Below, one piece after another: positions 3,568-42,094 of a DNA stretch of 49,410 nt (position 1 is its first letter; the number at the start of each line of letters is the position of its first letter). Both the position numbers and the translations under genes were made by a program. The stretch is from an uncultured Clostridia bacterium (GTDB lineage: Bacteria; Bacillota; Clostridia; TANB77; CAG-508). Location: assembly GCA_944392635.1 (NCBI GenBank), contig CALXXH010000001.1, forward strand, positions 1 to 49,410, in the 5' to 3' direction. The notes under the pieces are model-generated. The model made no database searches. It was not told the DNA's origin and was given only the letters and a program-made list of their open reading frames with translations.

Positions 3568-4289
3568 TTTTCATCATTCTCCTTTTCTTTTTCTTTATTT
3601 AATTCTTCTACGAATCCACTTGTTATAATTCCAGTCGGAAGTGCTACAAATGCAATCCCTACTAAGCTAGAAATTATACTTATTAATCTTCCTATTTCTG
3701 TTTTAGGACAGATATCTCCATAGCCAACTGTCGTTAATACTGTCGTAGACCAGTATATTGCCTCAAAAAAGTTTTTAAAACTCTGATTTTCAAACTGAAA
3801 CATTATTAAAGCTGATATGAATATAAATCCTGCAGTAAAACCACATACAACTTCTAATATTTTTTGTTTTTTTATGACTACATTCTTTATTATTTTAAAT
3901 TTAGTAGAATATCTTAATGTTTTCGCAATTCTTAATATTCTAAATACACTAAATATTCTTAAAATGTATGAACTGTTAAATATTTCACTGAAACATGATA
4001 ATATAACTACTAAATCAAATATAGCTGAAAGTGTAAATGGATATTTTATAAAACTAATCGTTCCTTTTTTCAATCTAAAATCTGCTGTTATCCACCTCAA
4101 AATATAATCAATTACAAATACAATTGTTGTTATAATTGTTAAACTATATGTGAAATTATTTTGTTGTTTAAATGTTAATGGAATTATACTTACCCAAACG
4201 CAAACTAATATTAATATGTCATACCATTCGTAATATGTTGTATCTTTCTCGATTATTTTAAATAACTTTTTTCTTACCATGACAACCAT
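3564..4289 (-). CDS. Voltage-gated-type (6TM) potassium channel, minimal, no cytoplasmic domain
   Basis: Canonical K+ selectivity filter TTVGYGD. S4-like segment FRILRIAKTLR (RxxRxxKxxR). Six predicted TM helices in 241 aa. Confidence 0.85.
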   Translation of the reverse strand: MVVMVRKKLFKIIEKDTTYYEWYDILILVCVWVSIIPLTFKQQNNFTYSLTIITTIVFVIDYILRWITADFRLKKGTISFIKYPFTLSAIFDLVVILSCFSEIFNSSYILRIFSVFRILRIAKTLRYSTKFKIIKNVVIKKQKILEVVCGFTAGFIFISALIMFQFENQSFKNFFEAIYWSTTVLTTVGYGDICPKTEIGRLISIISSLVGIAFVALPTGIITSGFVEELNKEKEKENDEK

Positions 4290-4924
4290 ATAGCAAAACC
4301 TGCTATTCCTCCAATTATTGCTAATATAATTACTACAAATAATAACCAGTTATACCATTTCCAGCCATCATAAAACGGTTTGTTCGCTTCTTCCTCTGTC
4401 CTTGCTTCATCTAGGATTTGGTCTACTTCTTCTTTTGTATATCCTCTTTCTTCTAAAGCTTTTGCTACATCTTGTTCAGTTACTGTATCTTTATCAGAAA
4501 AAATTTGGTCCAGCATATAAAATTGGAATATACTATTAGTTAAAGAAATTCCTCTATCTGTACTATATGTCGTATAATATGTTGGATTGTTGTTAATTAT
4601 TGTAGATTTGCCATTTGAATCTGTTTTCGGTTTTACTGTTTCATGATTTATTGTTGTTCTTCCAGAATTATTTTTTGTTGTTGTATAACTTTTTCCTGAT
4701 GAGCTACTTTTTGTTGTGCTTGATTTTGGAGTGCTAGACTTTACTGAACTACTTGTGCTACTTTTAGCAGAGCTTTTAGGTGTGCTAGACTTCACACTAC
4801 TATGTGAACTTCCGCTTCTTCCTCCGCTTGAATGTGCTCTTGCATATGTTAATGAGCTTCCTGATATTACTATCATTATTAAAATTACTATACTAATTAT
4901 TTTTTGTAATTTGTTTCTTTTCAT
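4274..4924 (-). CDS. Bitopic membrane protein with Ser/Thr/Lys-rich low-complexity tract
   Basis: N-terminal signal-anchor IISIVILIMIVISGSS, ~70 aa of S/T/K repeats (SSVKSSTPKSS x2), C-terminal TM LLFVVIILAIIGGIAGFAIWL. GGAGGATAAAA SD. Confidence 0.65.
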   Translation of the reverse strand: MKRNKLQKIISIVILIMIVISGSSLTYARAHSSGGRSGSSHSSVKSSTPKSSAKSSTSSSVKSSTPKSSTTKSSSSGKSYTTTKNNSGRTTINHETVKPKTDSNGKSTIINNNPTYYTTYSTDRGISLTNSIFQFYMLDQIFSDKDTVTEQDVAKALEERGYTKEEVDQILDEARTEEEANKPFYDGWKWYNWLLFVVIILAIIGGIAGFAIWLSW

Positions 4925-4926
4925 TT

Positions 4927-5313
4927 TTATCCTCCTATTTTTCTATCTTTTAAAATTCTTGGTTCGTATTTTCTGTTTTCTTGTCTTTTTTGCAATTTGT
5001 ATAATTCTTTTATTAATATTTTTATTTCATTCGTTATAAATTTGTTGTTGTATTTATCTGTAAAATTCTTTATTAGTTTTACTCTTTCAATGTCATTTTT
5101 TATTGTTCTTCTTTCTTTTCTTACTCTCTTTAAATCTATTGCTACTTTTGTTATTTCTACTGCATTTAAATTGTTTAATTCTAATTCGTGTAATAAATCT
5201 TGTTGTTCTGCTTCTTTATTTGCTAATTCTTGTAATAAATTGCTGTGTTCTGCTTCTACTTCCTCAAAAAATGATTTCATTATCTTTAATATTTCTTCTG
5301 GTGTTAATTCCAT
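4927..5313 (-). CDS. Hypothetical coiled-coil protein (128 aa)
   Basis: ORF with SD; first gene of the coupled cassette. Confidence 0.6.
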   Translation of the reverse strand: MELTPEEILKIMKSFFEEVEAEHSNLLQELANKEAEQQDLLHELELNNLNAVEITKVAIDLKRVRKERRTIKNDIERVKLIKNFTDKYNNKFITNEIKILIKELYKLQKRQENRKYEPRILKDRKIGG

Positions 5314-5325
5314 TTTTTATCACTC

Positions 5326-5688
5326 TCAATCTATGTGTGGTATATGATTATAATTTTGTTCTTCTAGTTCTATTTGCTCTGCTTTCTTTAAATATGCTAT
5401 ATATTTACGCATTTGCTTTTTTAATTGTTTTGTTCTTGATTTGCATTCATTAAGACTATGTTCTACTTGTTTTATTTCCTCTTCTCTTTCTTTTTTCGAC
5501 ATACTTCTTAATTCTCTTGCTAATCTATAACCGCTTCTTTGACTGCTATATATTACTACTCTTTTCTTTTTCAATTCACTTATTTCTCTTCTAACTGCTC
5601 TATCTGATAATCCTGTTTTTTCTACTAACTCTTTTCTTGTTGTATATTTAGTAGCACTTAGATAATTTTCAATATTTATATCTTTCAT
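5326..5688 (-). CDS. Winged-helix DNA-binding protein (120 aa from ATG 5688; ORF track start 5775 also possible)
   Basis: HTH-like TRKELVEKTGLSDRAVRREISELKKKRVV. ATG 5688 is preceded by an AGGAG SD, whereas the 5775 start has only a weak SD. Confidence 0.6.
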   Translation of the reverse strand: MKDINIENYLSATKYTTRKELVEKTGLSDRAVRREISELKKKRVVIYSSQRSGYRLARELRSMSKKEREEEIKQVEHSLNECKSRTKQLKKQMRKYIAYLKKAEQIELEEQNYNHIPHID

Positions 5689-5708
5689 ATTCTTTTTTCT
5701 CCTTTGAT

Positions 5709-5828
5709 TTAATGTGTTCTTATATCTTGTGTATATACTGCTTGTCCTTTTATAATTTTTATTAGTATTTGACATCTTTCTATGTCATTTGCTTTTCTTA
5801 TATCTTCTTCATTTATTACTTTTTTCAT
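5709..5828 (-). CDS. Possible small ORF (39 aa), below the ORF-track cutoff
   Basis: ATG 5828 lies 8 nt after GAGAGG (last codons of dnaB). MKKVINEEDIRKANDIERCQILIKIIKGQAVYTQDIRTH. Stop sits just before the AGGAG of the next gene. Mutually exclusive with the 5775 start of the wHTH ORF. Confidence 0.35.
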   Translation of the reverse strand: MKKVINEEDIRKANDIERCQILIKIIKGQAVYTQDIRTH

Positions 5829-5833
5829 ATGAT

Positions 5834-7054
5834 TTACCTCTCTAAATTTATAAATTCACTGTTTATTTTGTTAAACTTTAGTCTACTTTTACCTATATTT
5901 CCTGCCCTTTGTTTTTGTAAGTCTACTGTTACTATATTGTTTTCTACATCTTCTTGATATAAAAAGATTACATTGTCAGCATCTTGCTCTATTGATCCAC
6001 TTTCTCTAATATCAGCTAATGTTGGTTCGTTCTTTGTTGCATTTCTATTTAACTGGCAAAGTGCAATTATTGGTATTTCTAATTCTAAGCTTAACAATTT
6101 TAATGTTCTTGATATATCTGCTACTTCTTGTTCTCTACTTTTAAAATTTTCTAAATTTTTAACTAATTGAAGGTAGTCTATGATTAGCAAATCTAGTTTT
6201 CCTTTGTTTTTTAATTTCCTTACCTCTATTTCTATTTGTTGTATAGAATTTAATTTTGTATATAGCAACAAAGGTAAATCACTAATCTCTCCACATTTAA
6301 TATAAATTTTATCTAGTTCTTCTCCTGTTAGTTCTCCATTTCTAATTTTTCTAGAGTTTACTCTTGCTTTTCTTGATAGAATTTTTTGTATTATCTGTTC
6401 TTCTGACATTTCTAAACTAACAAATGCTACACTTTTGTTATAACTTGCTATTCTTTCTGCAATCTGTAGTACAAATGTTGTTTTTCCAACTCCTGGTCTT
6501 GCTCCAATTATTGTTAATTCTCCTTTGTGAAGTCCATCTGTCAAGCTATCTAAATCAAAAAATCCTGTGTAATAAGACAAATCGTTTTTTCTTGCCATGT
6601 TTTTTTCGATTAAGTCTGTTGTTCTTGCTATTAGATTTACAAAGTTTTCATTTTTTTGTGTTTGCATTTCTATTTTTTGCAATTTAGATATTACTTTTTC
6701 TATGTATAAATCTGTATTTTCTGCTTCTTTTATTTCTTTTTCTATCTCTTTTGCAACTAGAAATGTTTCTCTTTTCTTAGTTAATTCTTTTATAGCTTTA
6801 TATGTCCCTTCTGTTGTACTGCCTATTGTGTATGCTCCTAGATTTGATAGATAGTTTATAATGTCTTTTTCTTTTTCTAGAATATTTGCTATGTTTATAA
6901 TGCTTATTTCTTTTTTCTCTATTTTTAATTTGTTTATAGCTTTTATTATGTTTTTGTTTGTAATATTTACGAAATCATTTTCTGTTAAATTAACTTCTCC
7001 GTTTTCAAAAATTATGAAGTATAACATTGCTTTTTCTAGTTCTTCGTTATACAT
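5834..7054 (-). CDS. dnaB: Replicative DNA helicase, DnaB family (element-encoded)
   Basis: Walker A GARPGVGKTTF, Walker B LLIIDYLQL, RESGSIEQDAD motif; 406 aa. Confidence 0.9.
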   Translation of the reverse strand: MYNEELEKAMLYFIIFENGEVNLTENDFVNITNKNIIKAINKLKIEKKEISIINIANILEKEKDIINYLSNLGAYTIGSTTEGTYKAIKELTKKRETFLVAKEIEKEIKEAENTDLYIEKVISKLQKIEMQTQKNENFVNLIARTTDLIEKNMARKNDLSYYTGFFDLDSLTDGLHKGELTIIGARPGVGKTTFVLQIAERIASYNKSVAFVSLEMSEEQIIQKILSRKARVNSRKIRNGELTGEELDKIYIKCGEISDLPLLLYTKLNSIQQIEIEVRKLKNKGKLDLLIIDYLQLVKNLENFKSREQEVADISRTLKLLSLELEIPIIALCQLNRNATKNEPTLADIRESGSIEQDADNVIFLYQEDVENNIVTVDLQKQRAGNIGKSRLKFNKINSEFINLER

Positions 7055-7868
7055 ATCTTTTTCCTCCGCTACTCATTTTTTGTTTATATTCTTCTTCTGT
7101 CATTTTCACTTCTTTGTATTCTGCTTCTATTCCTTGCTTTTCTTCTTCCTGTTCTGTGTAGTCTAGTATTGCTTTATTAAAGAATGTATCGCCATGTTTT
7201 ATATATTGCTCTTCTGTTCTGTTCTTTTTACATTCTTCTTTATATTTTCTTACTGCGTTTTCTATCTGTTCATTAGTTAGTTTTTTAGTAATACCAGATA
7301 TCTTTCTGCCTTTTATCCATTGCTTATAATATTCAAATGCTTTAGCCTTTCCTTTTTTATGTGGATATTCTTTCCAAATTTTTTCAAAATTGTCCTGCAA
7401 AATATTTTTTGCAGTATATATATTTATATTATTAATACTTGTAATATTCTCTTTGACATTTTTATCAAGGGGCGTTTGACATTTTTGTGAATAGGGTGTT
7501 GATGTTTTTGTCAATACCTTATTACCTTGATTTTCTTGATAAGAGGTATTGACATTTTCATCAATAGGTATTTCATCTTGAAAAAATTTACTTATAGATA
7601 TAATTCTTTTATCTATTTCTTTACTATCTTTTTTGTAAAACATTTTTATAGCTATATATTTCTTTTTCGCTAATTGACTAATCCATCTAGAAATAGTTTC
7701 TTTAGTTGTACTATATAAATCAGCAAAGTATTGATTTGATGCCCAACAAACACCTTTTTCGTTACATAAAGAAGTTATTTCTCCATATAATAACTTTGCA
7801 TTTGCTGTCAGCTGTTTATCGTATCTAATTTCTGCTGGTATTATTGCATAATAATTAGGTTTTTCCAC
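7047..7868 (-). CDS. Replication initiator / replisome organiser, N-terminal HTH plus DnaD-like C-terminus
   Basis: GTG start 7868 behind AAGGAG. N-terminus YYAIIPAEIRYDKQLTANAKLLYGEITSLCNEKGVCWASNQYFADLY...ISRWISQL is typical of phage initiators. Iteron array lies inside the gene; 8-nt overlap with dnaB. Confidence 0.75.
   Translation of the reverse strand: MEKPNYYAIIPAEIRYDKQLTANAKLLYGEITSLCNEKGVCWASNQYFADLYSTTKETISRWISQLAKKKYIAIKMFYKKDSKEIDKRIISISKFFQDEIPIDENVNTSYQENQGNKVLTKTSTPYSQKCQTPLDKNVKENITSINNINIYTAKNILQDNFEKIWKEYPHKKGKAKAFEYYKQWIKGRKISGITKKLTNEQIENAVRKYKEECKKNRTEEQYIKHGDTFFNKAILDYTEQEEEKQGIEAEYKEVKMTEEEYKQKMSSGGKRYV
7453..7564. repeat. Iteron array, putative origin of replication of the element
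   Basis: 16-bp units with inverted ends TTGAY-N6-RTCAA at 7453 (TTGACATTTTTATCAA), 7476 (TTGACATTTTTGTGAA), 7499 (TTGATGTTTTTGTCAA) and 7549 (TTGACATTTTCATCAA), plus a degenerate copy at 7527. The first three are spaced exactly 23 bp apart. Confidence 0.6.
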
Positions 7869-7892
7869 TTTTCATTCTCCTTTCCTAAAATA

Positions 7893-7920
7893 TTAGGCTA
7901 GATTTTTGTGTCTAGCCTTA
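7893..7920 (-). terminator. Stem-loop between operons (weak terminator candidate)
   Basis: AGGCTAGA (7895-7902) pairs with TCTAGCCT (7911-7918); only a short U-run follows on the minus strand. Confidence 0.35.
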
Positions 7921-7925
7921 GTTGT

Positions 7926-8381
7926 TTATATGTAAAATTTCCCAAAAACTTCTAAAAATTTTTCTTTTGAATATAATTTGTAGAATTTTTCTTTTGCTTC
8001 TTTTCGTACTGTTTCTTTTATTTCTTTATTTGTTTTCCACTCATCATGACATTTTCTGCAAATTGGAATTACTAATCCCCATTTCATACATGTTTGTCTA
8101 TTAGAACCTTCAAAAATTTCATGTAAGTCCTCTTTTCTTGCTTTGTTACAGATATAACAAATTTGCATACTATCTGTTAAAATACTAAATCTTTTAGATT
8201 CTAATTTCTTTAATTTATTACTTTTCTTTTTAAGCTCTTTTACTTGCTTAAATTCTTTGTATTTACATGTTCTACAATCTTTAAAGTTAATTTCTTTTTT
8301 CTTTTGTTTGCAATATATGTATTTTTTGTAATCCTTTGTTCTAATTCTTAAGTGTATGCATTTCATCTTTTTAAACCCCAT
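7926..8381 (-). CDS. Cys-rich zinc-finger protein with HNH-like signature
   Basis: CRTC...CYICNKARKEDLHEIFEGSNR...ICRKCHDEW follows the CxxC...H...N/R...CxxCH pattern of His-Me finger proteins. Family not identified. Confidence 0.5.
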   Translation of the reverse strand: MGFKKMKCIHLRIRTKDYKKYIYCKQKKKEINFKDCRTCKYKEFKQVKELKKKSNKLKKLESKRFSILTDSMQICYICNKARKEDLHEIFEGSNRQTCMKWGLVIPICRKCHDEWKTNKEIKETVRKEAKEKFYKLYSKEKFLEVFGKFYI

Positions 8382-8625
8382 CTTTTGGTTTTTCTTTTAC
8401 TAAGAGTTTTGTCATTCCAAAATTAAATCCACATTTACTACAGTAACTATCAGTGTGTGAACACTTTTTTAAGCATTTTGGGCAATATGTGTCCAAACAT
8501 TTTTTGATAACTATTTCGTTATCTTTCTCTATTATCTCTAAGCCATCTCCTTCTTTTAAGTCATATGCTTTTCTAATTTCTGCTGGAATAACTATTCTTC
8601 CTAATTCATCTAATTTTCTAACCAT
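8371..8625 (-). CDS. AbrB/SpoVT-family DNA-binding protein with C-terminal zinc ribbon (84 aa from ATG 8625)
   Basis: MVRKLDELGRIVIPAEIRKAYDLKEGDGLEIIEKDNEIVIKK is a swapped-hairpin AbrB domain; CPKC...CSKC follows. The internal ATG has a better SD (GGAAGGAAA) than the 8667 start. Confidence 0.75.
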   Translation of the reverse strand: MVRKLDELGRIVIPAEIRKAYDLKEGDGLEIIEKDNEIVIKKCLDTYCPKCLKKCSHTDSYCSKCGFNFGMTKLLVKEKPKDGV

Positions 8626-8706
8626 ATTTCCATTTCCTTCCTTGATTTTTCTAATAAAATTTTGCATAATATTAGAGAAATCATATATTTATGTATTTAT
8701 TTTGAG

Positions 8707-8988
8707 TTATCTAATTGTTTCCGTTTTATTATTAGATAGCTCATTATTTAATATTGTTCTTATTTTATTTTTTAAATTTTCAATGCTATTATAGTCTTGT
8801 TGTTTTAATAATTTATCAATTGCTAACAATTTTTGATGATGATTATAATTTTCTAAATGCTCATATTCTATTTCATTTCTTAAATTCTTTTGACTTTGTT
8901 CTTGTCTTTCTATTTTATGTTGCAATTCTTCTATCTCATTTTCTTTTGCACTTACTATTTTGTTATGCAATCTTTTACTTATAAACAT
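8707..8988 (-). CDS. Hypothetical coiled-coil protein (93 aa)
   Basis: ORF with a GGGAGGAAAATTA SD. Confidence 0.5.
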   Translation of the reverse strand: MFISKRLHNKIVSAKENEIEELQHKIERQEQSQKNLRNEIEYEHLENYNHHQKLLAIDKLLKQQDYNSIENLKNKIRTILNNELSNNKTETIR

Positions 8989-9003
8989 TAATTTTCCTCC
9001 CTT

Positions 9004-9189
9004 CTATTTACAATTTTTACAATAATAATGTCCTTGTTTGTTATATAAAGTTGTGTTTTTACCACATTTTTCACAAACAATTCTTTTGCTCATCATTGCC
9101 ATTCTTTTTGCTTCTTTTTCTTTATGACTTTTGCTATTTGTTTTTGGTTGTTTGTTTAACACTTTTGCTACTGCACTCAAATATCCCAT
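9004..9189 (-). CDS. Small zinc-ribbon protein (61 aa)
   Basis: CEKCG...CKNCK at the C-terminus; AAGGAAAGGAGTGA SD. Confidence 0.5.
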   Translation of the reverse strand: MGYLSAVAKVLNKQPKTNSKSHKEKEAKRMAMMSKRIVCEKCGKNTTLYNKQGHYYCKNCK

Positions 9190-9208
9190 TTTTCTTTCAC
9201 TCCTTTCC

Positions 9209-9237
9209 TTGTAAAATTACTTTTAATGATATATAAT
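9209..9237 (+). promoter_or_regulatory. Sigma-A-type promoter for the plus-strand gene 9291-9557
   Basis: TTGTAA (9209-9214), 17-nt spacer, TATAAT (9232-9237). Confidence 0.55.
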
Positions 9238-9290
9238 TACCTCACACTTAAGAGAAAAATATTTTGATTTTAGAAAGTGAGGTGTTTTAT

Positions 9291-9557
9291 ATGCAACCAG
9301 ATTTTCAAAAGTTTCTAGATGACTGTATCCATAAATATAACGATGAATATTTTCCATATCTTTGTGATGAGCAAGAAAAAGGTCAACATTCTCTAGAAGA
9401 AAAATCAATACATGATGATGGATATACTCTACTTGGAAAAATTATCGGCTATAATGTAGGTCATGGAATAAAAAGTAGTAATTACATATCTCTGAAACAT
9501 CTAGAACAGTATCACAACTGGCTACTTGAAAATTACGATATAAAACCTAAGAATTAG
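9291..9557 (+). CDS. Hypothetical protein (88 aa), lone opposite-strand gene in the early region (moron-like)
   Basis: ATG 9291 lies 8 nt after GTGAGGTG. Own promoter. 3' end overlaps a convergent small ORF by 11 nt. Confidence 0.55.
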   Translation: MQPDFQKFLDDCIHKYNDEYFPYLCDEQEKGQHSLEEKSIHDDGYTLLGKIIGYNVGHGIKSSNYISLKHLEQYHNWLLENYDIKPKN

Positions 9558-9705
9558 TAGCACCTGCTTCCTTTAAAGCTTTAGTAATTGATGGTACAAT
9601 TTGTTCCCCAACTTTTGTGCCATCTATTTTTATGTCTTGTTTTTCTATTAAATTAAATTTCTTAAAAAATAATTCTAATTCTTGTACACTTCCTTCTATT
9701 TTCAT
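9547..9705 (-). CDS. Small ORF (52 aa), below the ORF-track cutoff
   Basis: ATG 9705 behind GGAGGGAATT. MKIEGSVQELELFFKKFNLIEKQDIKIDGTKVGEQIVPSITKALKEAGATNS. Confidence 0.45.
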   Translation of the reverse strand: MKIEGSVQELELFFKKFNLIEKQDIKIDGTKVGEQIVPSITKALKEAGATNS

Positions 9706-9714
9706 AATTCCCTC

Positions 9715-9840
9715 CTAATAAATCGTATTGTTTGTAAATCCTAGTATAATTAAGCATGTCCACATTAAGTTTGCACTTAAGAATACTACTATTTTTCCTA
9801 TAAATGCATATATTTTGTTCTTATCTAGTTTTCTTTTCAT
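9715..9840 (-). CDS. Small membrane peptide (41 aa), below the ORF-track cutoff
   Basis: ATG 9840 behind GGAGGTGAAACAA. MKRKLDKNKIYAFIGKIVVFLSANLMWTCLIILGFTNNTIY. Stop overlaps the next SD. Confidence 0.45.
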   Translation of the reverse strand: MKRKLDKNKIYAFIGKIVVFLSANLMWTCLIILGFTNNTIY

Positions 9841-9852
9841 TTGTTTCACCTC

Positions 9853-10056
9853 CTAAAATATTTGTTGCATTATTTCAAATGCTTTATCTAAATTTACTTT
9901 TTTACTTCTTGTGCCTGTTTTTGTAACTGCTTCTTTCATTTCTGGCATAGCTAGTATTTTATAAGCTTGTGACCTACTTAAACTATATTGCTCTTGAAAC
10001 TCTTTAACAGTTATGTATTTTGCTCTTGCTTTTTCTTGTAATCTAGTCATTGGCAT
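9853..10056 (-). CDS. Excisionase-like / MerR-type HTH protein (67 aa from ATG 10056)
   Basis: ITVKEFQEQYSLSRSQAYKIL HTH; AAGGAGGCGACAAAAA SD precedes ATG 10056. The ORF-track start at 10086 lacks an SD. Confidence 0.6.
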   Translation of the reverse strand: MPMTRLQEKARAKYITVKEFQEQYSLSRSQAYKILAMPEMKEAVTKTGTRSKKVNLDKAFEIMQQIF

Positions 10057-10285
10057 TTTTTGTCGCCTCCTTTGCTTTTGTTTCACAGTTAGTGAATGTA
10101 AAAGGTATAAAAATATCTTTTGTGTTACAACCTAAAACTTTTGCTATTCCTTCTGCTTTATCTTTTGGTATTTTTCTTTGATTATTTTCATACATATTGT
10201 AACAACCAACTGAAACATTAATTTCATTCGCCATAAACTGTTGAGTATAACCTTTTTCTTGCCTTCTTTTTTCTATTTCTGTCAT
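10043..10285 (-). CDS. XRE-family HTH regulator, Cro-like position
   Basis: GYTQQFMANEINVSVGCYNMYENNQRKIP HTH_3 pattern. First gene of the leftward operon, divergent from the repressor. Confidence 0.8.
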   Translation of the reverse strand: MTEIEKRRQEKGYTQQFMANEINVSVGCYNMYENNQRKIPKDKAEGIAKVLGCNTKDIFIPFTFTNCETKAKEATKNAND

Positions 10286-10302
10286 TTTTTCGCCTCCTTA
10301 CT

Positions 10303-10428
10303 TTTCACTTTTTGTGAAATTTGATATTATATTATAACAAGTTGTGAAATATGTCAATAGTTTTTTAACAAATAGTGAAAATATTTTACATTAAGTGAAA
10401 TAAATGTTATAATATCAATAGATTTCAC
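10303..10428. promoter_or_regulatory. Divergent promoter/operator region of the lysogeny switch
   Basis: GTGAAA half-sites at 10314, 10344, 10375 and 10395; inverted (TTTCAC) at 10303 and 10423. Includes palindrome TTTCAC-N5-GTGAAA (10303-10319). Rightward TTTACA(10385)-17-TATAAT(10408). Leftward TTGACA (rc of 10352-10357) with TATAAT (rc of 10331-10336). Confidence 0.6.
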
Positions 10429-10458
10429 ATATTGTAAAATTAATGAAAGAAGGTTTTT

Positions 10459-10824
10459 ATGGATAATATTTTAGGAAAAAGAATTGAGTTTGAAAGAATT
10501 AGACTTAAATTAAATCAAATAGAATTAGCTAAAAGATTAAATCTATCATCTAGTGCTTCTATCTCTCAATATGAAAGTGGAGATAGGATACCAAGTGATG
10601 ATATAAAACTTAAAATGTGCGAAATTTTTAATTGCTCATTAGATTACTTGATGGGTAAAACAGACATACGAAATCCTGGTCAACAGATAGACGATGTTTT
10701 AAATGAAGCTATGATAGGCATGTCAAAAGCAGAATATGACAAATTAACTGAAACTCAAAAGAAGCAAATTAGAGATTTTGCTATATTTGTTAAGAATCAA
10801 AATGAAGAAAAAAAGAAAAAATAG
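10459..10824 (+). CDS. XRE-family repressor (CI-like)
   Basis: N-terminal HTH_3 (LNQIELAKRLNLSSSASISQYESGDRIPS); position upstream of the ImmA-like gene and int. Confidence 0.85.
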   Translation: MDNILGKRIEFERIRLKLNQIELAKRLNLSSSASISQYESGDRIPSDDIKLKMCEIFNCSLDYLMGKTDIRNPGQQIDDVLNEAMIGMSKAEYDKLTETQKKQIRDFAIFVKNQNEEKKKK

Positions 10825-10835
10825 GAGGTATTTTT

Positions 10836-11000
10836 ATGTTTGGAAAAAATAATGAAAAAAAACAAAAAATTCAAGAGTTATCACAAAAACTTGAAGATTT
10901 AAAATTAAAATCACAAAATCCTAATTTATCACAAGAGGAATTTGAAAAATATCAAAATGAACTTGCACAAATAAATCAAGAAATAGATGAATTGCTTTAA
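10836..11000 (+). CDS. Small coiled-coil ORF (54 aa), below the ORF-track cutoff
   Basis: ATG 10836 lies 5 nt after TAGGAGGTA. MFGKNNEKKQKIQELSQKLEDLKLKSQNPNLSQEEFEKYQNELAQINQEIDELL. Confidence 0.45.
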   Translation: MFGKNNEKKQKIQELSQKLEDLKLKSQNPNLSQEEFEKYQNELAQINQEIDELL

Positions 11001-11017
11001 TTTTTGTGGAGGTACAA

Positions 11018-11438
11018 ATGAATTTAGAAAATTTATATGATATTGCTGAAAAAGAAGATATAAAAATCTATGACTGGCAAATAGAGGATGTTGATGGAAT
11101 GTATCTAAATTATCATAACATTAATGCTATTGCTTTAAATTATGATAGATTAGGTACATATGTAGATGAAAAATGTACATTAGCTGAAGAATTAGGTCAT
11201 TATTATATGGATGCTACATATCCTGCTTCTAGCACAGATAAAATATTAATTGATAAACAAGAATATCGTGCTAAGAAATGGAGTTATTATGTACTAATTC
11301 CTTTTGAAAATCTAAAATCAGCAATTTTAAAACGGGATAGATAATCTTTATAGTCTTGCTGATTATTTTGAAGTTACGGTTGAATATATGCGAAATTGTA
11401 TAGAATTTTATAAAAGAAAATATGGAGAGGTGTTTTAA
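11018..11438 (+). pseudogene. ImmA/IrrE (M78)-like metallopeptidase gene, reading frame broken at an A-run and zinc motif altered
   Basis: ATG 11018 after GGAGG. The frame stops at 11342-11344 (…SAILKRDR*). The +1 frame from 11331 encodes NGIDNLYSLADYFEVTVEYMRNCIEFYKRKYGEVF, a typical ImmA C-terminus, ending in TAATG overlapping the int start. Motif reads AEELGH instead of HExxH. Confidence 0.6.
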
Positions 11439-12577
11439 TGTTTACTTATACTACTAGAAAAGATGGCAGACTAATGAAAAAAGTTACTATAAACGGTAAA
11501 GTAAAATATCTATATTCAAATAATAAAGAAGACTTAGAAAAACAATATATAGAAGCAAAACACATGTCTTATAATGGACTTAACATAGATGACAGCAAAA
11601 TAACATTAAAGCAATGGGCTGAAAAATGGTATGATGTAAATATATCTCAAAAAGAATACAACACAAGAAGAAGTATAAGAAATTTGTTAGATAACCACAT
11701 TTATCCTGAACTAGGACATATTAAACTAAAAAATCTAAAAGTTATTAATATAAAAGAATTGCAAAAAAATATGTTAGAACAAGGGCTGACCTCTACTTGC
11801 AATAGAACAATAACAACTATCAAAAGAATTTTAAATGATGCCGTAGAAAATGATATAATTCAAAAAAATGTTGCCTTTAATATTAAATCTATTAAATACA
11901 CAAAAATAGAAAAAAGACCTCTTACTTCTTATGAAGATGAACTTTTATTAAAAGTAGCTTCAAACCATAAATATGGAATATTCTTCTTAATTTTAAGATA
12001 TTGTGGTCTAAGAACAGAAGAAATTATACCTCTAACAATAAATGATATTGATTTAGAAAATAAAAGAATATTGGTGAATAAAGCTACATATTTTGAAAAA
12101 AACAATCCTAGTATAAAAACTACTAAAAATAAAAAATCAAGAAAAGTTCCAATTTTAGATATAATATATAAACAATTAGAAAGACATATTGAAATATGTA
12201 AAGAAAACAATCAAGAATTACTTTTTACAAAACAAAGTGATAACAAAATGTTAACATCTTCAAGCATTCGATGGATGTTAAAATCTTTTCTAATCGCTAT
12301 TAACAAACAATATGAAAAAGAGCAAAAAGAAAAAGACAATAAATTTAAACTAACGAATGACACCAAAATATATTTCACTAATCATGAACTTAGACATTCT
12401 TATTGCACAATGCTATATTATGCGGGAATAAAAATTAAAAAAGCTCAAGAGTTAATGGGGCATTCATCTGCAGATATGGTCTATAATGTATATACTCATT
12501 TAGATGAAGAAAGAGAAAATGTTGATGAAACTTTAAATAATTATTGCAATAAAGTTGTCAAAAAAGTTGTCAATTAA
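11438..12577 (+). CDS. int: Tyrosine recombinase / phage integrase
   Basis: C-terminal catalytic pattern LRTEE..., HELRHSYCTMLYYAG, GHSSADMVYNVYTHL (R..HxxR..Y). N-terminal SAM-like domain; adjacent to the tRNA fragment. Confidence 0.9.
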   Translation: MFTYTTRKDGRLMKKVTINGKVKYLYSNNKEDLEKQYIEAKHMSYNGLNIDDSKITLKQWAEKWYDVNISQKEYNTRRSIRNLLDNHIYPELGHIKLKNLKVINIKELQKNMLEQGLTSTCNRTITTIKRILNDAVENDIIQKNVAFNIKSIKYTKIEKRPLTSYEDELLLKVASNHKYGIFFLILRYCGLRTEEIIPLTINDIDLENKRILVNKATYFEKNNPSIKTTKNKKSRKVPILDIIYKQLERHIEICKENNQELLFTKQSDNKMLTSSSIRWMLKSFLIAINKQYEKEQKEKDNKFKLTNDTKIYFTNHELRHSYCTMLYYAGIKIKKAQELMGHSSADMVYNVYTHLDEERENVDETLNNYCNKVVKKVVN

Positions 12578-13594: not shown

Positions 13595-15322
13595 TTATCC
13601 ATTTACTAATTTTAACATAGCATCCTTTAATTCTTCTAATTTAATATTAGCATCAGCTTCTGTTTTAGCCTTAATTCCCATATATAGCTTTATTTTTGGT
13701 TCAGTTCCAGAAGGTCTAATACAACACCAATTATCATCTTCTAATGCATAATATAAAACATTAGATTTAGGTAATCCTGTTTTTGAAATATCTCCTGTTT
13801 TCATATCTTTTACTATATCTCTTTCTACATCTTTAAATGTCAATACATCATAATTTCCAATTTTATCTATATCTGTTTCTCTCATTTTAGTCATCATATC
13901 TTTAATCTCTTGTGCACCTTGTACTCCCTCTCTTACTATTGAAACTTGTGCCTCTTTATAATATTCATATTTCTCGTAAATATCAATCATTGCATCCCAT
14001 AAAGTCTTACCTTTTGAAGCATAGTAACAAGCAGCCTCACATAAAGCCATTACTGCTGCAATTCCATCTTTATCTCTTGCATAATCTCCAATTAAACAAC
14101 CATAACTTTCTTCAAAACCAAATACATAAGTTTTATCTTTGTTTTCTTCTGCCTTTCTCATAATTGCACCAATATTTTTAAATCCTGTTAAGACTTCTAT
14201 ACATTCCAAGTCATAATATTTTGCTATAGCCTTTGCAAGTTCTGAAGAAACAATTGTTGTAATAAACATTCCATTAGAAGGTAATATTCCTTTTTCCTTC
14301 ATTTGAGAAATTCTATACTCTGCAATTAACAAAGCTGACATATTTCCTGTATAATTCATATATTCACCTGTTTTAACATCTTTTGCATAAATTCCTAATC
14401 TATCTGCATCTGGATCTGTTGCTAAAACAACATCAGCATCAACTTTTTTTGCTAATTCTAAAGCTAGTTTAAATGCCTTTGGATCTTCCGGATTTGGATA
14501 ATCAACAGTTGGAAAATTACCATCAGGTTCTTTTTGTTCAGGAACTACATACACATTTTCCATTCCTAATTCTTTTAATAACTTTTCAGCAATAGTATTA
14601 CCTGTTCCATGTAATGGAGTATACACTACTTTTAATTTTTTACCTTGTTCTTTCATAATTTCTGGATTTAAAACACATGCCTTCAAAACACCCATATATT
14701 TTTCATCCATTTCATTTCCAACAAAATTTAATAACTTCTTATCAACTGCTTCTTCTTTAGAAATCTCTTTTATTTCACTAAAATTTTTAACCTCTCTAAC
14801 CTTTGATATAATTTCAGTATCTCTTGGACTAACTATTTGTGCACCATCATCCCAATACACTTTATATCCGTTATATTTTGGTGGATTATGACTTGCCGTA
14901 ATCATAACTCCAGCTGTACATTTTAATTCTCTTACTGCAAAAGAAAGTTCTGGAACTGGTCTTAAATTTTCAAACAAATATGCTTTTATTCCATTTGCAC
15001 AAAAAATTAATGCTGTTTGCATAGCAAATTCTTTTGACATTCTTCTAGAATCATAACTAATTGCAACTCCTTTATCTTGAGTTCCTTGCTCTAGGATATA
15101 ATTTGCCAAACCTTGAGTTGCTTTTCCTACTGTATATTTATTCATCCTATTTGTACCAGCACCAATTATTCCTCTTAATCCAGCTGTTCCAAATTCAAGT
15201 TCTTTATAAAATCTATCTTCAATTTCCTCTTGATTATCTTTAATTTCTAATAGTTCTTTTTTAGTTTCTTCATCAAATTCTGGACTCTCACACCATCTTT
15301 TATATTCTTCTAAATAACTCAT
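13595..15322 (-). CDS. pgcA: Phosphoglucomutase / alpha-D-phosphohexomutase
   Basis: Active-site TASHNPPKYNGYK, metal site DPDADR, sugar-binding GFEESYG; 575 aa. Confidence 0.9.
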   Translation of the reverse strand: MSYLEEYKRWCESPEFDEETKKELLEIKDNQEEIEDRFYKELEFGTAGLRGIIGAGTNRMNKYTVGKATQGLANYILEQGTQDKGVAISYDSRRMSKEFAMQTALIFCANGIKAYLFENLRPVPELSFAVRELKCTAGVMITASHNPPKYNGYKVYWDDGAQIVSPRDTEIISKVREVKNFSEIKEISKEEAVDKKLLNFVGNEMDEKYMGVLKACVLNPEIMKEQGKKLKVVYTPLHGTGNTIAEKLLKELGMENVYVVPEQKEPDGNFPTVDYPNPEDPKAFKLALELAKKVDADVVLATDPDADRLGIYAKDVKTGEYMNYTGNMSALLIAEYRISQMKEKGILPSNGMFITTIVSSELAKAIAKYYDLECIEVLTGFKNIGAIMRKAEENKDKTYVFGFEESYGCLIGDYARDKDGIAAVMALCEAACYYASKGKTLWDAMIDIYEKYEYYKEAQVSIVREGVQGAQEIKDMMTKMRETDIDKIGNYDVLTFKDVERDIVKDMKTGDISKTGLPKSNVLYYALEDDNWCCIRPSGTEPKIKLYMGIKAKTEADANIKLEELKDAMLKLVNG

Positions 15323-15492
15323 ACTTCCTCCTTAATTAAATAATTATAATTTATTTTTAACATTCATATATTATCATAACTTTAAATAAAAAAAAAGTAA
15401 AAAAGAAATATTTTACAAAATTATTGAAACATCATATTTCCATTACGAATTTTTTCCGTTTACGTCAATTTTTCGTAATAAATTTCATGCTT

Positions 15493-15578
15493 TTCTAAAA
15501 ATGTGTAAAATATACCGAAAAACATTTCTAAAAATGTGGTAAATCAGTATTGAAAATGTTCTAAAAATGTGATAAACT
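15493..15578 (+). promoter_or_regulatory. Three phased direct repeats overlapping the promoter of the ATPase gene
   Basis: TTCTAAAAATGTG at 15493, 15526 and 15559 (33-bp period). Promoter TTGAAA (15550-15555), 17 nt, TGaTAAACT (15570-15578). The third repeat fills the spacer. Confidence 0.6.
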
Positions 15579-15597
15579 ATTATTAGGAGGTACGTAT

Positions 15598-16935
15598 ATG
15601 GAAAGATTAAAAAGAAAAATTGATGATTATCTTATAGAATGGAAAAAAAATAAAAACAGATTACCTTTAATAATAAAAGGTGCAAGACAAATAGGAAAAA
15701 CAAATGCCATTAGACACTTTGGAAATAATAACTATACAACATTTATTGAAATAAACTTTGCACTTCAACCACAATTCAAAACAATATTTGAAGAAGGTTT
15801 TGAAGTTGACAATATAATAAAAAATATAACATTAAAAATGCCGGAACTTGAATTAAATGAATATGATACACTAATATTTTTTGATGAAATGCAAGACTGT
15901 GTAAGCACAGCAACTTCCTTAAAATCATTTCGAGAAGATGGCAGATATGATGTTATTTGTTCAGGCTCTTTAATGGGAATTAATTATAAAGAAATCGAAT
16001 CTAATAGTGTTGGTAATAAAGAAGACTATATCATGAATTCCTTAGATTTTGAAGAATTTTTATGGGCAAAAGGTTATAGCAATGAGCAAATTAATGATTT
16101 ATATAAACATATGATAGAATTAAAACCTCTAAGTAATACACAATATGATGTCATGATGTCAAATTTTAAAGACTATATGATAGTAGGAGGAATGCCTGCT
16201 ATAGTAAGTAGATTTATTGAAAACAAAAATTTCAGTGGTATTTTAAAAATGCAACAACAAATTTTATTGGATTATGAAGAAGATATAACAAAATATGCAG
16301 GTGGTTTAGATAAAACAAAAATATTGAACTGTTATAGAAAAATACCTGTATTTTTAGGAAATGAAAATAAAAAATTTCAAATATCAAAAATTGCTGATGG
16401 TGCAAGAAACAGAGAATATGTAGGAATCATTGAATGGCTTGCAAATGCTGGAATTGTAAATATTTCTTATGCAATGGAACAAGCATGTCTTCCATTAAAA
16501 GGAAACTATAACCCTGATAATTATAGACTATATTTTGCGGATACTGGATTATTAATTGGCTCTTTAGATGAGGAAGTTCAATATGATTTAAGAAATAACG
16601 AAAATATGAATACATATAAAGGAGCTATATATGAAAATATTATAAGTGATATGCTAGTAAAAGAAGGATATAATTTATATTTTTATAAAAATGATAGTAA
16701 AAAAGTCGAAATGGATTTCATGGTAAGAGATAAAAATTCTTTAATTCCTATTGAAGTTAAAGCAAATAATAATGCAACAATTTCACTTAATAACTTAATA
16801 AATAATAACTTATATAAAGATATTAAATATGGTATAAAATTATGCAATAAAAATATAGGATTTAATGGGAAATTTTATACTTTTCCATATTTTCTAACAT
16901 TTTTGTTAAAAAAGTTTTTAAAAGAAAAAAACTAA
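15598..16935 (+). CDS. COG1373-type AAA+ ATPase with C-terminal PD-(D/E)xK-like domain (AAA_14 + DUF4143 architecture)
   Basis: Walker A GARQIGKT, Walker B LIFFDEMQ, C-terminal EMDFMV...IPIEVKA nuclease-like motif; 445 aa. Confidence 0.85.
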   Translation: MERLKRKIDDYLIEWKKNKNRLPLIIKGARQIGKTNAIRHFGNNNYTTFIEINFALQPQFKTIFEEGFEVDNIIKNITLKMPELELNEYDTLIFFDEMQDCVSTATSLKSFREDGRYDVICSGSLMGINYKEIESNSVGNKEDYIMNSLDFEEFLWAKGYSNEQINDLYKHMIELKPLSNTQYDVMMSNFKDYMIVGGMPAIVSRFIENKNFSGILKMQQQILLDYEEDITKYAGGLDKTKILNCYRKIPVFLGNENKKFQISKIADGARNREYVGIIEWLANAGIVNISYAMEQACLPLKGNYNPDNYRLYFADTGLLIGSLDEEVQYDLRNNENMNTYKGAIYENIISDMLVKEGYNLYFYKNDSKKVEMDFMVRDKNSLIPIEVKANNNATISLNNLINNNLYKDIKYGIKLCNKNIGFNGKFYTFPYFLTFLLKKFLKEKN

Positions 16936-16937
16936 AA

Positions 16938-16983
16938 ATAGCTGAGATTAAAAGCTTTTACTTCTAATCTCAGCTATTTTTTT
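16938..16983. terminator. Rho-independent terminator (bidirectional)
   Basis: 13-bp stem ATAGCTGAGATTA (16938-16950) / TAATCTCAGCTAT (16965-16977), followed by T7. Confidence 0.7.
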
Positions 16984-17000
16984 AATTCACTAATAATATA

Positions 17001-18251
17001 CTAATCTAAATGATAATATTTCTTATATAATTCTCTTGCAGTTTTAGGGCAATCAACTCCAGCTGAATCTGCATTTTTAACAGGTGCAAACTCTTCTTCT
17101 CTTTTTACCCTTAAAACAGCCATATCATCTACACTTCCAAAAGCATCAAACAAAAATGCTTCAAACTTATATGCATTAGGCGAATCTGGAACAACAATAT
17201 TTCCATCCTTGTCCATATATGTTGCCTTTTTATATGCCACATGATATGGTAATGGATTTGCTCCCATTCTTTCAATAGCATCTACACTAAATAAATTACA
17301 AAGAATATGTGATTCACCATACAATAATTCTCCATTTTCATCTGTTGCCTCTGCCATATCTTCAGTTATTTCTGAATACTCTATTACATTTGGTTTTCCG
17401 TTTCTTTTACAAAATACTCCTACTTTTTCATGAGGATTAGCTTTTACAACTGACTTACAAGCAACCGTAACATTTCTATCTATAGCAATTCCCATAAGTA
17501 CAGGGTCAACCATTTTTACTAAGCAATTATCAACTCCACCAATAAATACCCATTCAATTCCCATATGTCTCATTATTTTAGTCATACCGTTTTTTACTAA
17601 AGACTCATATATTCCTCCATGTCCATCTGCTGCTTGTTTAATTAAACCATCTTCACCAATTAAAATCTTACCTTCTGTATCTACCATTGGTAACTCACCT
17701 TGGATAAAGAAAAATATATTTTTATTATTTTGGTATCCAAAAAATTTATGCTTCTCAAAAAATTCAATAGTTGCCTTGTTATTTTCTCTACTAGTCATAA
17801 TGAACCAAGGAATAGTAACACCATACTTATTTCCTTCTTCTTTTAAATTATCTGCTAACAACTCAAATAAAGACTTATGAGAATCCAAACCTATATCAAA
17901 TGTTCCCTTTGGACCATTATGTCCTAATCTTGTTCCTTGACCACCTGCCATAGTTACAGCTGCAAGTTTTCCTTCTTTTATTGCTTTTTTACCAATATTC
18001 TCATAATATTTATACATATCATTCAATTTATATTTATCTAAATAATCAATTGGAGTTATCTCATCTTCTTGTTTTTTAGGCTCTTTATCTGTATTTTTAT
18101 ATAAACTATTAATTAGTTCAAAATTAATTTCATTAATTTGCTCCAATAATTCCTTCTTATGCTTTTCATCTAAACTATCATAATGATTTAATAAGTGTTC
18201 TTGTCCATATTTTTTTAAAATAGCTTTTGCTTCTTCTGCTTTTCTATCCAT
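17001..18251 (-). CDS. UDP-sugar / UDP-N-acetylglucosamine pyrophosphorylase (UDPGP type 1 family)
   Basis: MAGGQGTRLG nucleotide-binding loop and family-typical layout; 416 aa. Confidence 0.85.
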   Translation of the reverse strand: MDRKAEEAKAILKKYGQEHLLNHYDSLDEKHKKELLEQINEINFELINSLYKNTDKEPKKQEDEITPIDYLDKYKLNDMYKYYENIGKKAIKEGKLAAVTMAGGQGTRLGHNGPKGTFDIGLDSHKSLFELLADNLKEEGNKYGVTIPWFIMTSRENNKATIEFFEKHKFFGYQNNKNIFFFIQGELPMVDTEGKILIGEDGLIKQAADGHGGIYESLVKNGMTKIMRHMGIEWVFIGGVDNCLVKMVDPVLMGIAIDRNVTVACKSVVKANPHEKVGVFCKRNGKPNVIEYSEITEDMAEATDENGELLYGESHILCNLFSVDAIERMGANPLPYHVAYKKATYMDKDGNIVVPDSPNAYKFEAFLFDAFGSVDDMAVLRVKREEEFAPVKNADSAGVDCPKTARELYKKYYHLD

Positions 18252-27724: not shown

Positions 27725-28999
27725 TTAATTCTTTAATGCTGTTATTGGAACAACATATACCCCATCTTCTCTTTTATATGCTGCATTTACCAATCCACAT
27801 ATTACACACAATACTTTTGGAGTTTTTCCATTTTCTTTCTCAATTTCATCTTTAATTTTTAATAAACTTTCAGCTGCATCATCTATTTGATTTGCTCCTA
27901 ATTTTATTTCAAATGCACACCAATCTCCATTTTCAAGTTCAACAACTGCATCAATTTCCCTATCTTTATAATCTTGATAATGATATACATTAGCTCTAAA
28001 TGATTCTGCATATATTTTTAAATCTCTCTCACATAAAGCTTCAAATAGAAATCCTAAAGTATTTAAATCATTTAATAACTTTTCTGGAGTTGCCTTTAGC
28101 AAACTACATGCAAGAGATGGATCTACAAAATGTCTTTTTTCACTTTGTTTTACTTTAGCAGAAGACCTTATATTTTCTGCAAAAGGTTTTTGATTATCAA
28201 GTATAAATAATCTTGTAAATATATCTAAATAAGAAGCAACTGTATCAATATCTATATCCTCATCATCTATTTGTTTAATATCTCTTTTTAAAGTTTTATT
28301 TGTTACAGTTGTACTTTCATTTCTAGCTAGAGAACGTAATAACAATCTCATTTTATTAGTATCTCTTTTTACCTCATCTATTCTATATACATCATCATCT
28401 AGTATTGCATCTATATATGATTCAGGTAACAGTCCTGCCCTTTCAATAGGAACATCTAAATTACCAGGCCATCCTCCTCTAACAATAAATTCTATAATTT
28501 TTCTTAAATCAACTTCCCCTGTCATTTTTTCATTCATTTTTCCATTACATAAGTCATTCAATGATATATCACCTGTTGAATCTCCTGATTCATATAAAGA
28601 CATTGGCCTCATTCTTAGTTTTCCAATTCTTCCTGCACCACTATGCAATATTCCTTTATGATTTGGGGTAGCTGAGCCGGTTAAAATAAATTGTCCTTTT
28701 TTACTAAGCTTATCAACTTCATATCTTACTGCATCCCAAAGTCTTGGAACTTCTTGCCATTCATCAATTAATCTTGGTTTTTCACCTTCTAACACTATAT
28801 TGGGTGCCGTTTCTGCTAATTTTTTATTTTGAAAATTACCTGTTGGATCTCCTATCATAATAGAACTAGTGCTATGATAAATAGAAGTCCATGTCTTTCC
28901 ACACCATTTTGGTCCTTCAATACATACAGCTCCAAAAGTTTTCAAATACTCCTCTATCATATTATCAATTATTCTTGGCTTATAATTTTTAATTTCCAT
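27725..28999 (-). CDS. COG1373-type AAA+ ATPase with C-terminal PD-(D/E)xK-like domain, second paralogue
   Basis: Walker A GPKWCGKT, Walker B RLIDEWQ, C-terminal EIDAVV...AFEIKLG. ATG 28999 lies 9 nt after AGGAG; the ORF-track GTG 29005 is too close to the SD. Confidence 0.85.
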   Translation of the reverse strand: MEIKNYKPRIIDNMIEEYLKTFGAVCIEGPKWCGKTWTSIYHSTSSIMIGDPTGNFQNKKLAETAPNIVLEGEKPRLIDEWQEVPRLWDAVRYEVDKLSKKGQFILTGSATPNHKGILHSGAGRIGKLRMRPMSLYESGDSTGDISLNDLCNGKMNEKMTGEVDLRKIIEFIVRGGWPGNLDVPIERAGLLPESYIDAILDDDVYRIDEVKRDTNKMRLLLRSLARNESTTVTNKTLKRDIKQIDDEDIDIDTVASYLDIFTRLFILDNQKPFAENIRSSAKVKQSEKRHFVDPSLACSLLKATPEKLLNDLNTLGFLFEALCERDLKIYAESFRANVYHYQDYKDREIDAVVELENGDWCAFEIKLGANQIDDAAESLLKIKDEIEKENGKTPKVLCVICGLVNAAYKREDGVYVVPITALKN

Positions 29000-29019: not shown

Positions 29020-29111
29020 ATTATAACTCAATCCGTGAGTTTTTGCAATATCAATCCGTGATTTTTTCAATTTTCATTCCGTGATTTTTTAGGTTTTTAA
29101 CCCGTGAATTT
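29020..29111 (-). promoter_or_regulatory. Four phased direct repeats overlapping the promoter of the second ATPase gene
   Basis: CCGTGA (plus strand) at 29033, 29056, 29079 and 29102, exact 23-bp period, with T-rich flanks (ATCCGTGAKTTTTT). Minus-strand promoter TTGCAA (29048-29043), 17 nt, TATAAT (29025-29020). The first repeat lies in the spacer. Confidence 0.6.
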
Positions 29112-41072: not shown

Positions 41073-41105
41073 ATACACTCACCTCTTTTCCATTTATAAC
41101 TTATT

Positions 41106-42050: not shown

Positions 42051-42094
42051 ATCAATTCCTCTTTCTACATAAATACCTAAAATATTTTAGTTTT

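Follow-up and report, generated by a model that had tools for sequence, protein, structure and literature searches.

Phased direct repeats at the promoter of a transferred ATPase-nuclease gene are candidate private operators of the encoded protein

Our analysis of a 49,410-nt stretch of DNA from an uncultured Clostridia bacterium (assembly GCA_944392635.1, contig CALXXH010000001.1, positions 1 to 49,410; hereafter the window) revealed a single-gene cassette in which three copies of a 13-nt box, phased at exactly 33 bp, precede the gene for a 445-aa protein with an AAA_14 ATPase and a DUF4143 domain. Comparison across the family strongly supports the view that this box array is a cis element specific to the product of its own cassette, and we infer that the encoded protein is the binder. 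We consider it probable that the boxes are private operators which the protein would read head to tail at a pitch fixed by its clade, and that occupancy of the proximal box would shut the promoter. The array is apparently an unpublished regulatory feature of a known, uncharacterised family; the literature that we searched gave no account of promoter repeats or of a biochemical function for DUF4143, COG1373, PDC-S01 or PF13635. The elements of the cassette start region are as follows.

15493..15505, plus strand: box 1 (distal), exact match to TTCTAAAAATGTG
15526..15538, plus strand: box 2, exact match to TTCTAAAAATGTG, 33 bp beyond box 1
15559..15571, plus strand: box 3 (proximal), TTCTAAAAATGTG, within the promoter spacer; its TG at 15570-15571 is also the TG of the extended -10
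15550..15578, plus strand: sigma-70-type promoter, with TTGAAA at 15550-15555, a 17-nt spacer at 15556-15572 and TG-a-TAAACT (TAAACT at 15573-15578)
15585..15590, plus strand: Shine-Dalgarno sequence AGGAGG, read from the sequence, starting 6 nt past the -10 and ending 7 nt before the ATG at 15598
15598..16935, plus strand: coding sequence of 445 aa, AAA_14 + DUF4143 ATPase-nuclease (PADLOC PDC-S01, model PDLC04786), assigned by Pfam and PADLOC profile matches

The three direct repeats with their exact period, as well as a proximal copy filling the spacer of a promoter that is followed at once by a Shine-Dalgarno sequence, had been described in an original prediction made from the letters of the sequence, and we confirmed both. 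The 13-mer TTCTAAAAATGTG occurs exactly three times in the window, always on the plus strand and with spacings of 33 and 33 bp, and no further exact copy is present either in the window or in the 1.32-Mb, 164-contig assembly to which it belongs. Looser matches elsewhere, with up to two mismatches, are at chance level (8 found, 7.8 expected), so that the signal consists of the exact phased triplet alone. Promoter-like sites are not enriched in this AT-rich DNA (10 found, 15.9 expected) and the consensus match by itself is not significant; the promoter call is based instead on the same layout being kept in orthologues (L010-L017). Given the position of the Shine-Dalgarno sequence between the -10 and the start codon, the mRNA leader must be very short.

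Comparison of upstream regions confirmed that such arrays occur family-wide and that their period is constant within a protein clade. We scored direct arrays by an information-weighted self-alignment, at shifts of 15-45 bp, of the 140 nt before 593 gene starts of the same genome. The gene at 15598-16935 ranked fourth and a paralogue at 27725-28999 first, with ranks 2 and 3 taken by a GC-rich dispersed repeat and a low-complexity run of pure A/T. Moreover, 22 of 29 homologues (33-100% identity) from 60 relatives scored above the 95th percentile of the genome background, and the direct arrays among those 29 had a period of 32-33 bp in every case. A broader set comprised 76 loci from named genomes of Clostridia, Negativicutes, Bacilli, Bacteroidota, Treponema, Kiritimatiellae, Verrucomicrobia, Eggerthellaceae, Cloacimonadota and methanogens. 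Here, 48 loci exceeded the 95th percentile of 166 flanking-gene controls (Mann-Whitney p = 8e-19), and the period was 32-33 bp in 46 of these 48 arrays, whereas the periods of the controls were spread evenly over 15-45 bp. In the subfamily of the paralogue, the best period was exactly 23 bp in all 29 homologues (41-100% identity), each within the top 3.2% of the background. The number of boxes ranges from 2 to 4 in the first subfamily and from 2 to 5 in the second. Repeats are thus present upstream of orthologues, and the earlier proposal that they are a family-wide feature co-varying with the predicted winged helix-turn-helix (wHTH) stands in its first part: the arrays extend across the family and track the protein clade, but co-variation with the wHTH specifically was not demonstrable.

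The GC-rich dispersed repeat (GGGACGG.CCTT / GTCCCCAAA...GGACA) accounts for the only other high array scores. Copies of it are scattered through the intergenic DNA of this genome, which has 27% GC, and of its relatives, for example upstream of 6524-7519 on G000:C33 and of 4371-6983 on G000:C58, and in the upstream regions of L029 and L030.

The second gene of the family in the window lies on the opposite strand and carries an array with another motif.

27725..28999, minus strand: paralogue of 424 aa, AAA_14 + DUF4143 (PDC-S01, model PDLC04790), assigned by Pfam and PADLOC (E 5e-63)
29020..29110, minus strand: paralogue array of four TCACGG boxes, starting at 29107, 29084, 29061 and 29038, an exact 23-bp period

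BLASTP detected no similarity between the two products. The same promoter architecture with a different repeat, as originally proposed for this paralogue, was borne out: its last box falls within the 17-nt spacer between TTGCAA (29048-29043) and TATAAT (29025-29020). Altogether, the genome encodes six AAA_14 + DUF4143 genes, all matching PADLOC PDC-S01 models over their full length. The other four have inverted repeats at or beside near-consensus promoters, with inverted-repeat ranks of 2, 11, 20 and 100 among the 593 upstream regions. Six paralogues in one cell come with six different motifs.

An orphan array was found at about 625-690 of contig C72 of the same genome, where three TCACGGAA boxes at 23-bp spacing share the core of the paralogue operator. 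It has no adjoining DUF4143 gene, overlaps the 3' end of a 174-codon open reading frame (ORF) and precedes a hairpin and a short ORF for a membrane protein. This array is either what remains of a lost cassette or an additional target site.

Box sequences have evolved together within arrays. In the TCT-type group, the proteins of which share 68-92% identity, loci agree at 96% in the 13-nt core and at 49% in the inter-box spacers. At the level of sequence comparison, this shows that the box cores, unlike the spacers, are under selection. When the box sequence shifts, it does so in all copies of an array at once, so that each array is uniform: the box reads TCTAAAAATGTG in L007, L010, L011, L087, L094 and L111, TGTAAAAAATGTG in L012-L015, GGAATTTTGTG or GGAAAAATGTG in L016, L017, L088-L093 and L098-L101, and CTCATTTTTTTGT in L019 and L116, with AAAACGTGA and xxTGCA types in loci further out. 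The 23-bp clade has its own series, namely TCACGGAAT, TGCACAA, GTGTCGA, TGTATAT, TGTTCA, ACCGAAAA and ACCACAAA. Distal copies are the most degenerate (L011, L015, L087), which fits a gradient of selection that would be strongest at the promoter.

The position of the proximal box argues in the same direction. In Firmicutes, it lies in the spacer between -35 and -10 or overlaps or abuts the -35, while in Bacteroidota (L099, L103, L110) it comes straight after the TAnnTTTG box, around the transcription start, and archaeal members (Methanocalculus, Methanomassiliicoccales) also have 32-33 bp arrays upstream. Since arrays are found under such different promoter types, they follow the protein and not the promoter grammar of the host, which argues for a cassette-encoded binder and against tandem promoters or curvature. 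In our view there is very little to recommend the idea that the repeats are promoter architecture without a dedicated binder, i.e. tandem extended -10 promoters, phased A-tract curvature or an UP element, or else sites of a host regulator. Each box does end in TGnTAAAxT, boxes 1 and 2, which read TGTGTAAAAT and TGTGGTAAAT, resemble an extended -10, and an A5 tract is present in every box. However, the same arrays occur in Bacteroidota and archaea, whose promoter elements differ, boxes of other sub-clades such as TCACGGAAT and AAAGTCCTAGTAAAAACTTGCA contain no -10-like sequence, the 23-bp period is out of helical phase, and the box core is kept while the spacers drift. Furthermore, six different motifs for six paralogues in one cell make a shared host factor unlikely.

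In the encoded protein, AAA_14 (PF13173) matches residues 22-155 (E 6e-21, 75.2 bits against a Pfam gathering cut-off of 27) and DUF4143 (PF13635), which has been catalogued in the PD-(D/E)xK superfamily without a known function (PMC3424549), matches residues 227-390 C-terminal to the ATPase (E 5e-28, 98.4 bits, cut-off 28.1). The PADLOC model PDLC04786 is matched over its full length (E 6.3e-146, residues 4-440 of 445), whereas no NCBIfam model matched the protein and no PDB chain matched it by sequence. The functional sites are listed below.

15679..15702, plus strand: Walker A, GARQIGKT, residues 28-35, with G28, R30, Q31, G33 and K34 invariant
15883..15888, plus strand: Walker B, D96-E97, invariant
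16309..16536, plus strand: predicted wHTH, residues 238-313 (H3 271-283; beta-hairpin wing 287-313), from AlphaFold2 model m22f521109cad
16624..16845, plus strand: PD-(D/E)xK nuclease core, residues 343-416 (E346, E371, D373, E386, K388), from conserved columns and the secondary structure of the model

Conservation was read from alignments of 14 and 70 homologues, which were built from related loci because the best 120 matches of a general homologue search were all at least 91% identical and could add no depth. In these alignments E346, E371, D373 and E386-V-K388 are invariant or nearly so, as are the Walker residues, so that ATPase and nuclease are both probably active. The family assignment, the Walker motifs and the C-terminal PD-(D/E)xK-like motif had all been recognised in the original prediction. 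An AlphaFold2 model computed from the 70 sequences (pLDDT 90.8, pTM 0.91) comprises an AAA+ core (1-157), a helical lid (162-233), a winged helix (238-313), in agreement with the wHTH predicted earlier, and an alpha/beta nuclease core (343-416). In the latter, the nuclease residues are placed on strands 374-377 and 382-387 and the order of elements fits alpha-beta-beta-beta-alpha-beta, with weak best fold matches in the PDB. A Foldseek search of the PDB with the whole model returned ORC/Cdc6 subunits first, including archaeal Cdc6/Orc1 on origin DNA (2qby), followed by STAND NTPases, RuvB, clamp loaders and MuB; all of these matches are weak (E ~1e-5, TM 0.23-0.38). Residues 234-445 alone gave no significant PDB match (best E 0.016), the weak ones being the nucleases Can2, McrC and Bax1 (E 0.016-0.12) and small wHTH regulators (E at least 0.016).

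Taken together, we propose that 15493-16940 is a self-contained, horizontally acquired one-gene cassette of box array, promoter and gene which was put into the spacer between two sugar-nucleotide genes. The three boxes would be the cognate DNA sites of the 445-aa protein, whose protomers would bind head to tail at a spacing set by the protein clade. Protein on the proximal box would cover the promoter spacer together with the TG of the extended -10 and thereby block RNA polymerase, and the gene would repress itself, keeping a potentially harmful nuclease at a low, fixed level. With a box of its own, every one of the six paralogues would run a separate, insulated circuit. The negative sign of the regulation and cooperative or ATP-dependent binding are suggested by the position of the boxes and by the AAA+ fold. 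We also count in favour of the operator reading that the winged helix lies beside the AAA+ lid in the model, as in Orc1/Cdc6 initiators. If correct, private boxes would account for the coexistence of six to eighteen paralogues, free of cross-talk, within a single small genome. A conserved, clade-specific array predicts a defined DNA ligand for each protein, which makes the family directly testable.

Several observations weigh against autorepression through private operators. About 30% of subfamily members have no array by our score, and there are sub-clades whose arrays stop shortly before the -35, a position as able to activate as to repress. In two relatives (G030 and G006), a 155-nt dispersed repeat parts the array from the gene, the ORF of which is intact. 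Moreover, winged helices that follow the lid in AAA+ and STAND proteins are often structural and do not bind DNA. Finally, the mutual information between motif class (TGTG, CGTG, TGCA) and protein columns is spread over all domains, the top 30 columns comprising 8 in the nuclease, 8 in the AAA domain, 7 in the lid, 5 in the wHTH and 2 in the linker; this even spread is due to phylogenetic confounding and says nothing on the domain that reads the DNA. Only three columns part the proteins of TCT-type loci from those of GGA-type loci, one in the wing (292) and two in the loop before the catalytic E371 and D373 (368-369).

A different use of the same binding was also considered, in which the array would mainly be a nucleation or loading site and a head-to-tail ATPase oligomer, of the sort formed in iteron-Rep, DnaA-oriC and Orc1-ORB systems, the working state, for instance as a sensor of copy number or of foreign DNA that is titrated by invading DNA, with repression as a by-product. 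The strict clade-specific period of 33 or 23 bp and the head-to-tail copies are what ordered oligomers would give, the number of boxes varies from 2 to 5, and the array on contig C72 combines three boxes of the paralogue motif with the lack of a gene. The best fold matches, i.e. ORC/Cdc6 on origin DNA, STAND NTPases and the filament-forming MuB, point the same way, but they are weak. In addition, simple repression accounts for the constant contact of the proximal box with the core promoter, and two or three sites are few for a filament. We therefore regard a primary role in nucleation as unlikely. A still bolder picture, to which we attach a slightly lower likelihood, would make the PDC-S01 proteins sequence-programmed ATPase-nuclease assemblies with private, phased "home" sites: the array would seed a head-to-tail oligomer resembling those of Orc1 or DnaA, which would at once silence the gene and park the nuclease, and foreign DNA or another trigger that pulls the protein off would de-repress and arm it. 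If this were true, the 33-bp and 23-bp periods would report two oligomer geometries.

The operator reading invites comparison with several known systems. In plasmid iterons (P1 RepA, F RepE, R6K pi, pPS10 RepA), autorepression is mediated by several repeats, each about 20 bp long and recurring every 22-23 bp or so, whose sequence is private to the replicon. The likeness lies in head-to-tail repeats of fixed period at the promoter of the gene whose product would bind them. However, Rep is a WH1-WH2 protein, whereas the present protein is an AAA+ nuclease that is encoded on the chromosome at six loci per genome and shows no sign of an origin. By analogy, the array may work like an iteron array, but the locus is not a member of the iteron-Rep replicons. 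Archaeal Orc1/Cdc6 with its origin recognition boxes (ORB; PDB 2qby) shares with the modelled protein the order of AAA+ domain, lid and winged helix, and repeats recognised by a product directly upstream of its own gene are a likeness predicted here. The similarity is weak (TM ~0.3, with a range of 0.23-0.32, 10-13% identity, E 1e-5), the present protein has an extra PD-(D/E)xK nuclease domain, and ORB elements flank an unwinding element, of which there is no sign at this locus.

Restriction-modification systems under C-protein control and regulators of the BrxR/CapW type employ a separate small regulator that binds palindromes. They resemble the cassette in being horizontally mobile and in placing an operator over the promoter of a potentially toxic nuclease system, and tight autoregulation is predicted here as well; in the cassette, by contrast, the effector itself would regulate and the sites are phased direct repeats. 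McrBC likewise joins an NTPase of the AAA+ class to a PD-(D/E)xK nuclease, and McrC is among the weak C-terminal fold matches (E 0.03, not significant), but unlike the gene at 15598-16935 it consists of two subunits, depends on modification and has no operator array.

Comparative analysis of the surrounding DNA confirmed that the gene is an insertion into an ancestral pair of sugar-nucleotide genes, as the original prediction had suspected. It is the only plus-strand gene between PGM/PMM (13595-15322, minus strand) and UDPGP (17001-18251, minus strand), and it shares a terminator hairpin with the convergent UDPGP gene.

16935..16981, either strand: hairpin with a 20-bp stem and T runs on both sides, identified from the sequence

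A UDPGP orthologue is present in 59 of 60 sampled genomes of the genus. In 18 of the 20 relatives whose DNA downstream of UDPGP was compared, PGM is the next gene and has the same orientation; 21-708 nt separate the two, compared with 1678 nt in the present genome, so that the gene is not found at this position in all relatives. One relative (G006) has an empty spacer of 225 nt. Its alignment to the window breaks off at 15393 on the PGM side and resumes at 17002 on the UDPGP side, the intergenic DNA being too diverged to place a precise junction. The UDPGP-PGM spacer is a hotspot for accessory genes: the nearest relative (G030) carries a different 3.1-kb insert in the same spacer (L037:1108-4247, G030:C1), with a YhgA-like Transposase_31 gene (PD-(D/E)xK), a DUF6809-like ORF and an HTH_3 gene.

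The extent of the cassette follows from orthologues in unrelated contexts. By blastn, positions 1397-2843 of L007 correspond to 15494-16940 of the window, i.e. from box 1 to 5 nt past the stop codon, and no homology to those orthologues was found in the flanks outside these limits, which identifies box array, promoter and gene as the conserved unit. The 445-aa protein is the sole conserved product within it. Transfer of the cassette between lineages is clear from sequence identities. An orthologue from a different family of the order (G060) is 91% identical in protein and 87.5% in DNA, compared with 62% for MurA, and copies in named genomes reach 60-63% identity in Bacteroidota and 63-75% in Negativicutes and Bacilli.

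This mobility raises the question of whether the repeats themselves are mobility sites, which the nuclease-ATPase would read as the cassette end in order to drive its own transfer or insertion, as in a selfish homing or transposition module. Box 1 does mark the left edge of the homology between genomes, the cassette is found in many unrelated contexts across phyla, and the other insert in the G030 spacer encodes a PD-(D/E)xK "transposase_31". We nevertheless judge such a role quite improbable. Repeats are present at one end only, and neither a target-site duplication nor a terminal inverted repeat was found around the cassette at this locus. The greater degeneracy of the distal copies in L011, L015 and L087 looks like decaying selection and not like a defined recombination end. 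Furthermore, the site is occupied by the cassette in each of the three recorded conspecific contigs, and members of the PDC-S01 family are seldom encoded by plasmids (59 of 72,556 records) or by phages (12 of 50,697).

Whether the cassette serves in defence is a separate matter. PDC-S01 is a guilt-by-embedding candidate whose validation is pending (PMC12988326). It is very abundant in bacteria and archaea, and is reported to rank fourth among "defence system" calls in prokaryotes overall and first among single loci in rumen genomes (PMC12988326, PMC13356809). In the only published challenge, one representative gave no protection of E. coli B against T4, T5 or T7 (bioRxiv 10.1101/2024.09.26.614923). 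Both genes in the window share with PDC-S01 the domain order, the stand-alone organisation and a full-length model match. However, the candidate label derives from embedding in defence islands, and the association with such islands raised in the original prediction did not hold at this locus: no defence island surrounds either ATPase gene of the window, and the genes nearby are PGM, UDPGP, SpoIIR, MurA and a PP-loop ATPase. A defence role is thus unproven and draws on the PADLOC candidate label. Counting PDC-S01 genes as "defence systems" relies on context statistics alone, and the gene at 15598-16935 has inserted singly, with housekeeping genes around it.

Apart from the two cassettes, the window consists of housekeeping DNA between an integrase-bearing element, which ends by 12.6 kb, and DNA resembling a conjugative element, which begins at about 36 kb. 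The mobile DNA on the left (5834-12577) encodes a tyrosine integrase (11438-12577), an HTH_3/IrrE-like pair (10459-11344), an HTH_36 protein and a DnaB-like helicase, and that on the right (37287-44665) a large amidase/phage-tail-lysozyme protein (37287-41078) and a protein resembling type IV secretion system pilins (42095-44665).

A DnaA-box reading of the TGTG-containing core was rejected, as the core does not fit TGTGNATAA. Rfam gave no match for either the window or L008. An inverted repeat, ATTACGAA-N22-TTCGTAAT, at 15442-15479 falls within the 100 nt that separate the PGM promoter region from box 1; this stretch is absent from other copies of the cassette and from the empty site of G006, and it may be a chance occurrence in AT-rich DNA.

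The two cassettes of the window differ in their distribution among relatives. The paralogue is kept about 10.7 kb from UDPGP in the two closest relatives, G030 (C1:45462-46733) and G006 (C13:12920-14191), at 92-93% identity, while the orthologue of the gene at 15598-16935 sits elsewhere in both genomes, so that the two cassettes differ in how long they have resided at their sites. In these orthologues (L008:2838-2992 on G030:C62, and L009 on G006:C1), the 3 x 33-bp array and promoter are separated from the start codon precisely by the 155-nt dispersed repeat, which supplies a new Shine-Dalgarno-like GGAAGG; it has 34 matches in G030, 32 in G006 and 7 in the present genome. Beyond bacterial chromosomes, the Mycoplasma phage phiMFV1 (AY583235.1) contains at 3960-4532 an ORF of the DUF4143 family with 48% identity over residues 4-190, which is annotated as disrupted by prophage insertion.

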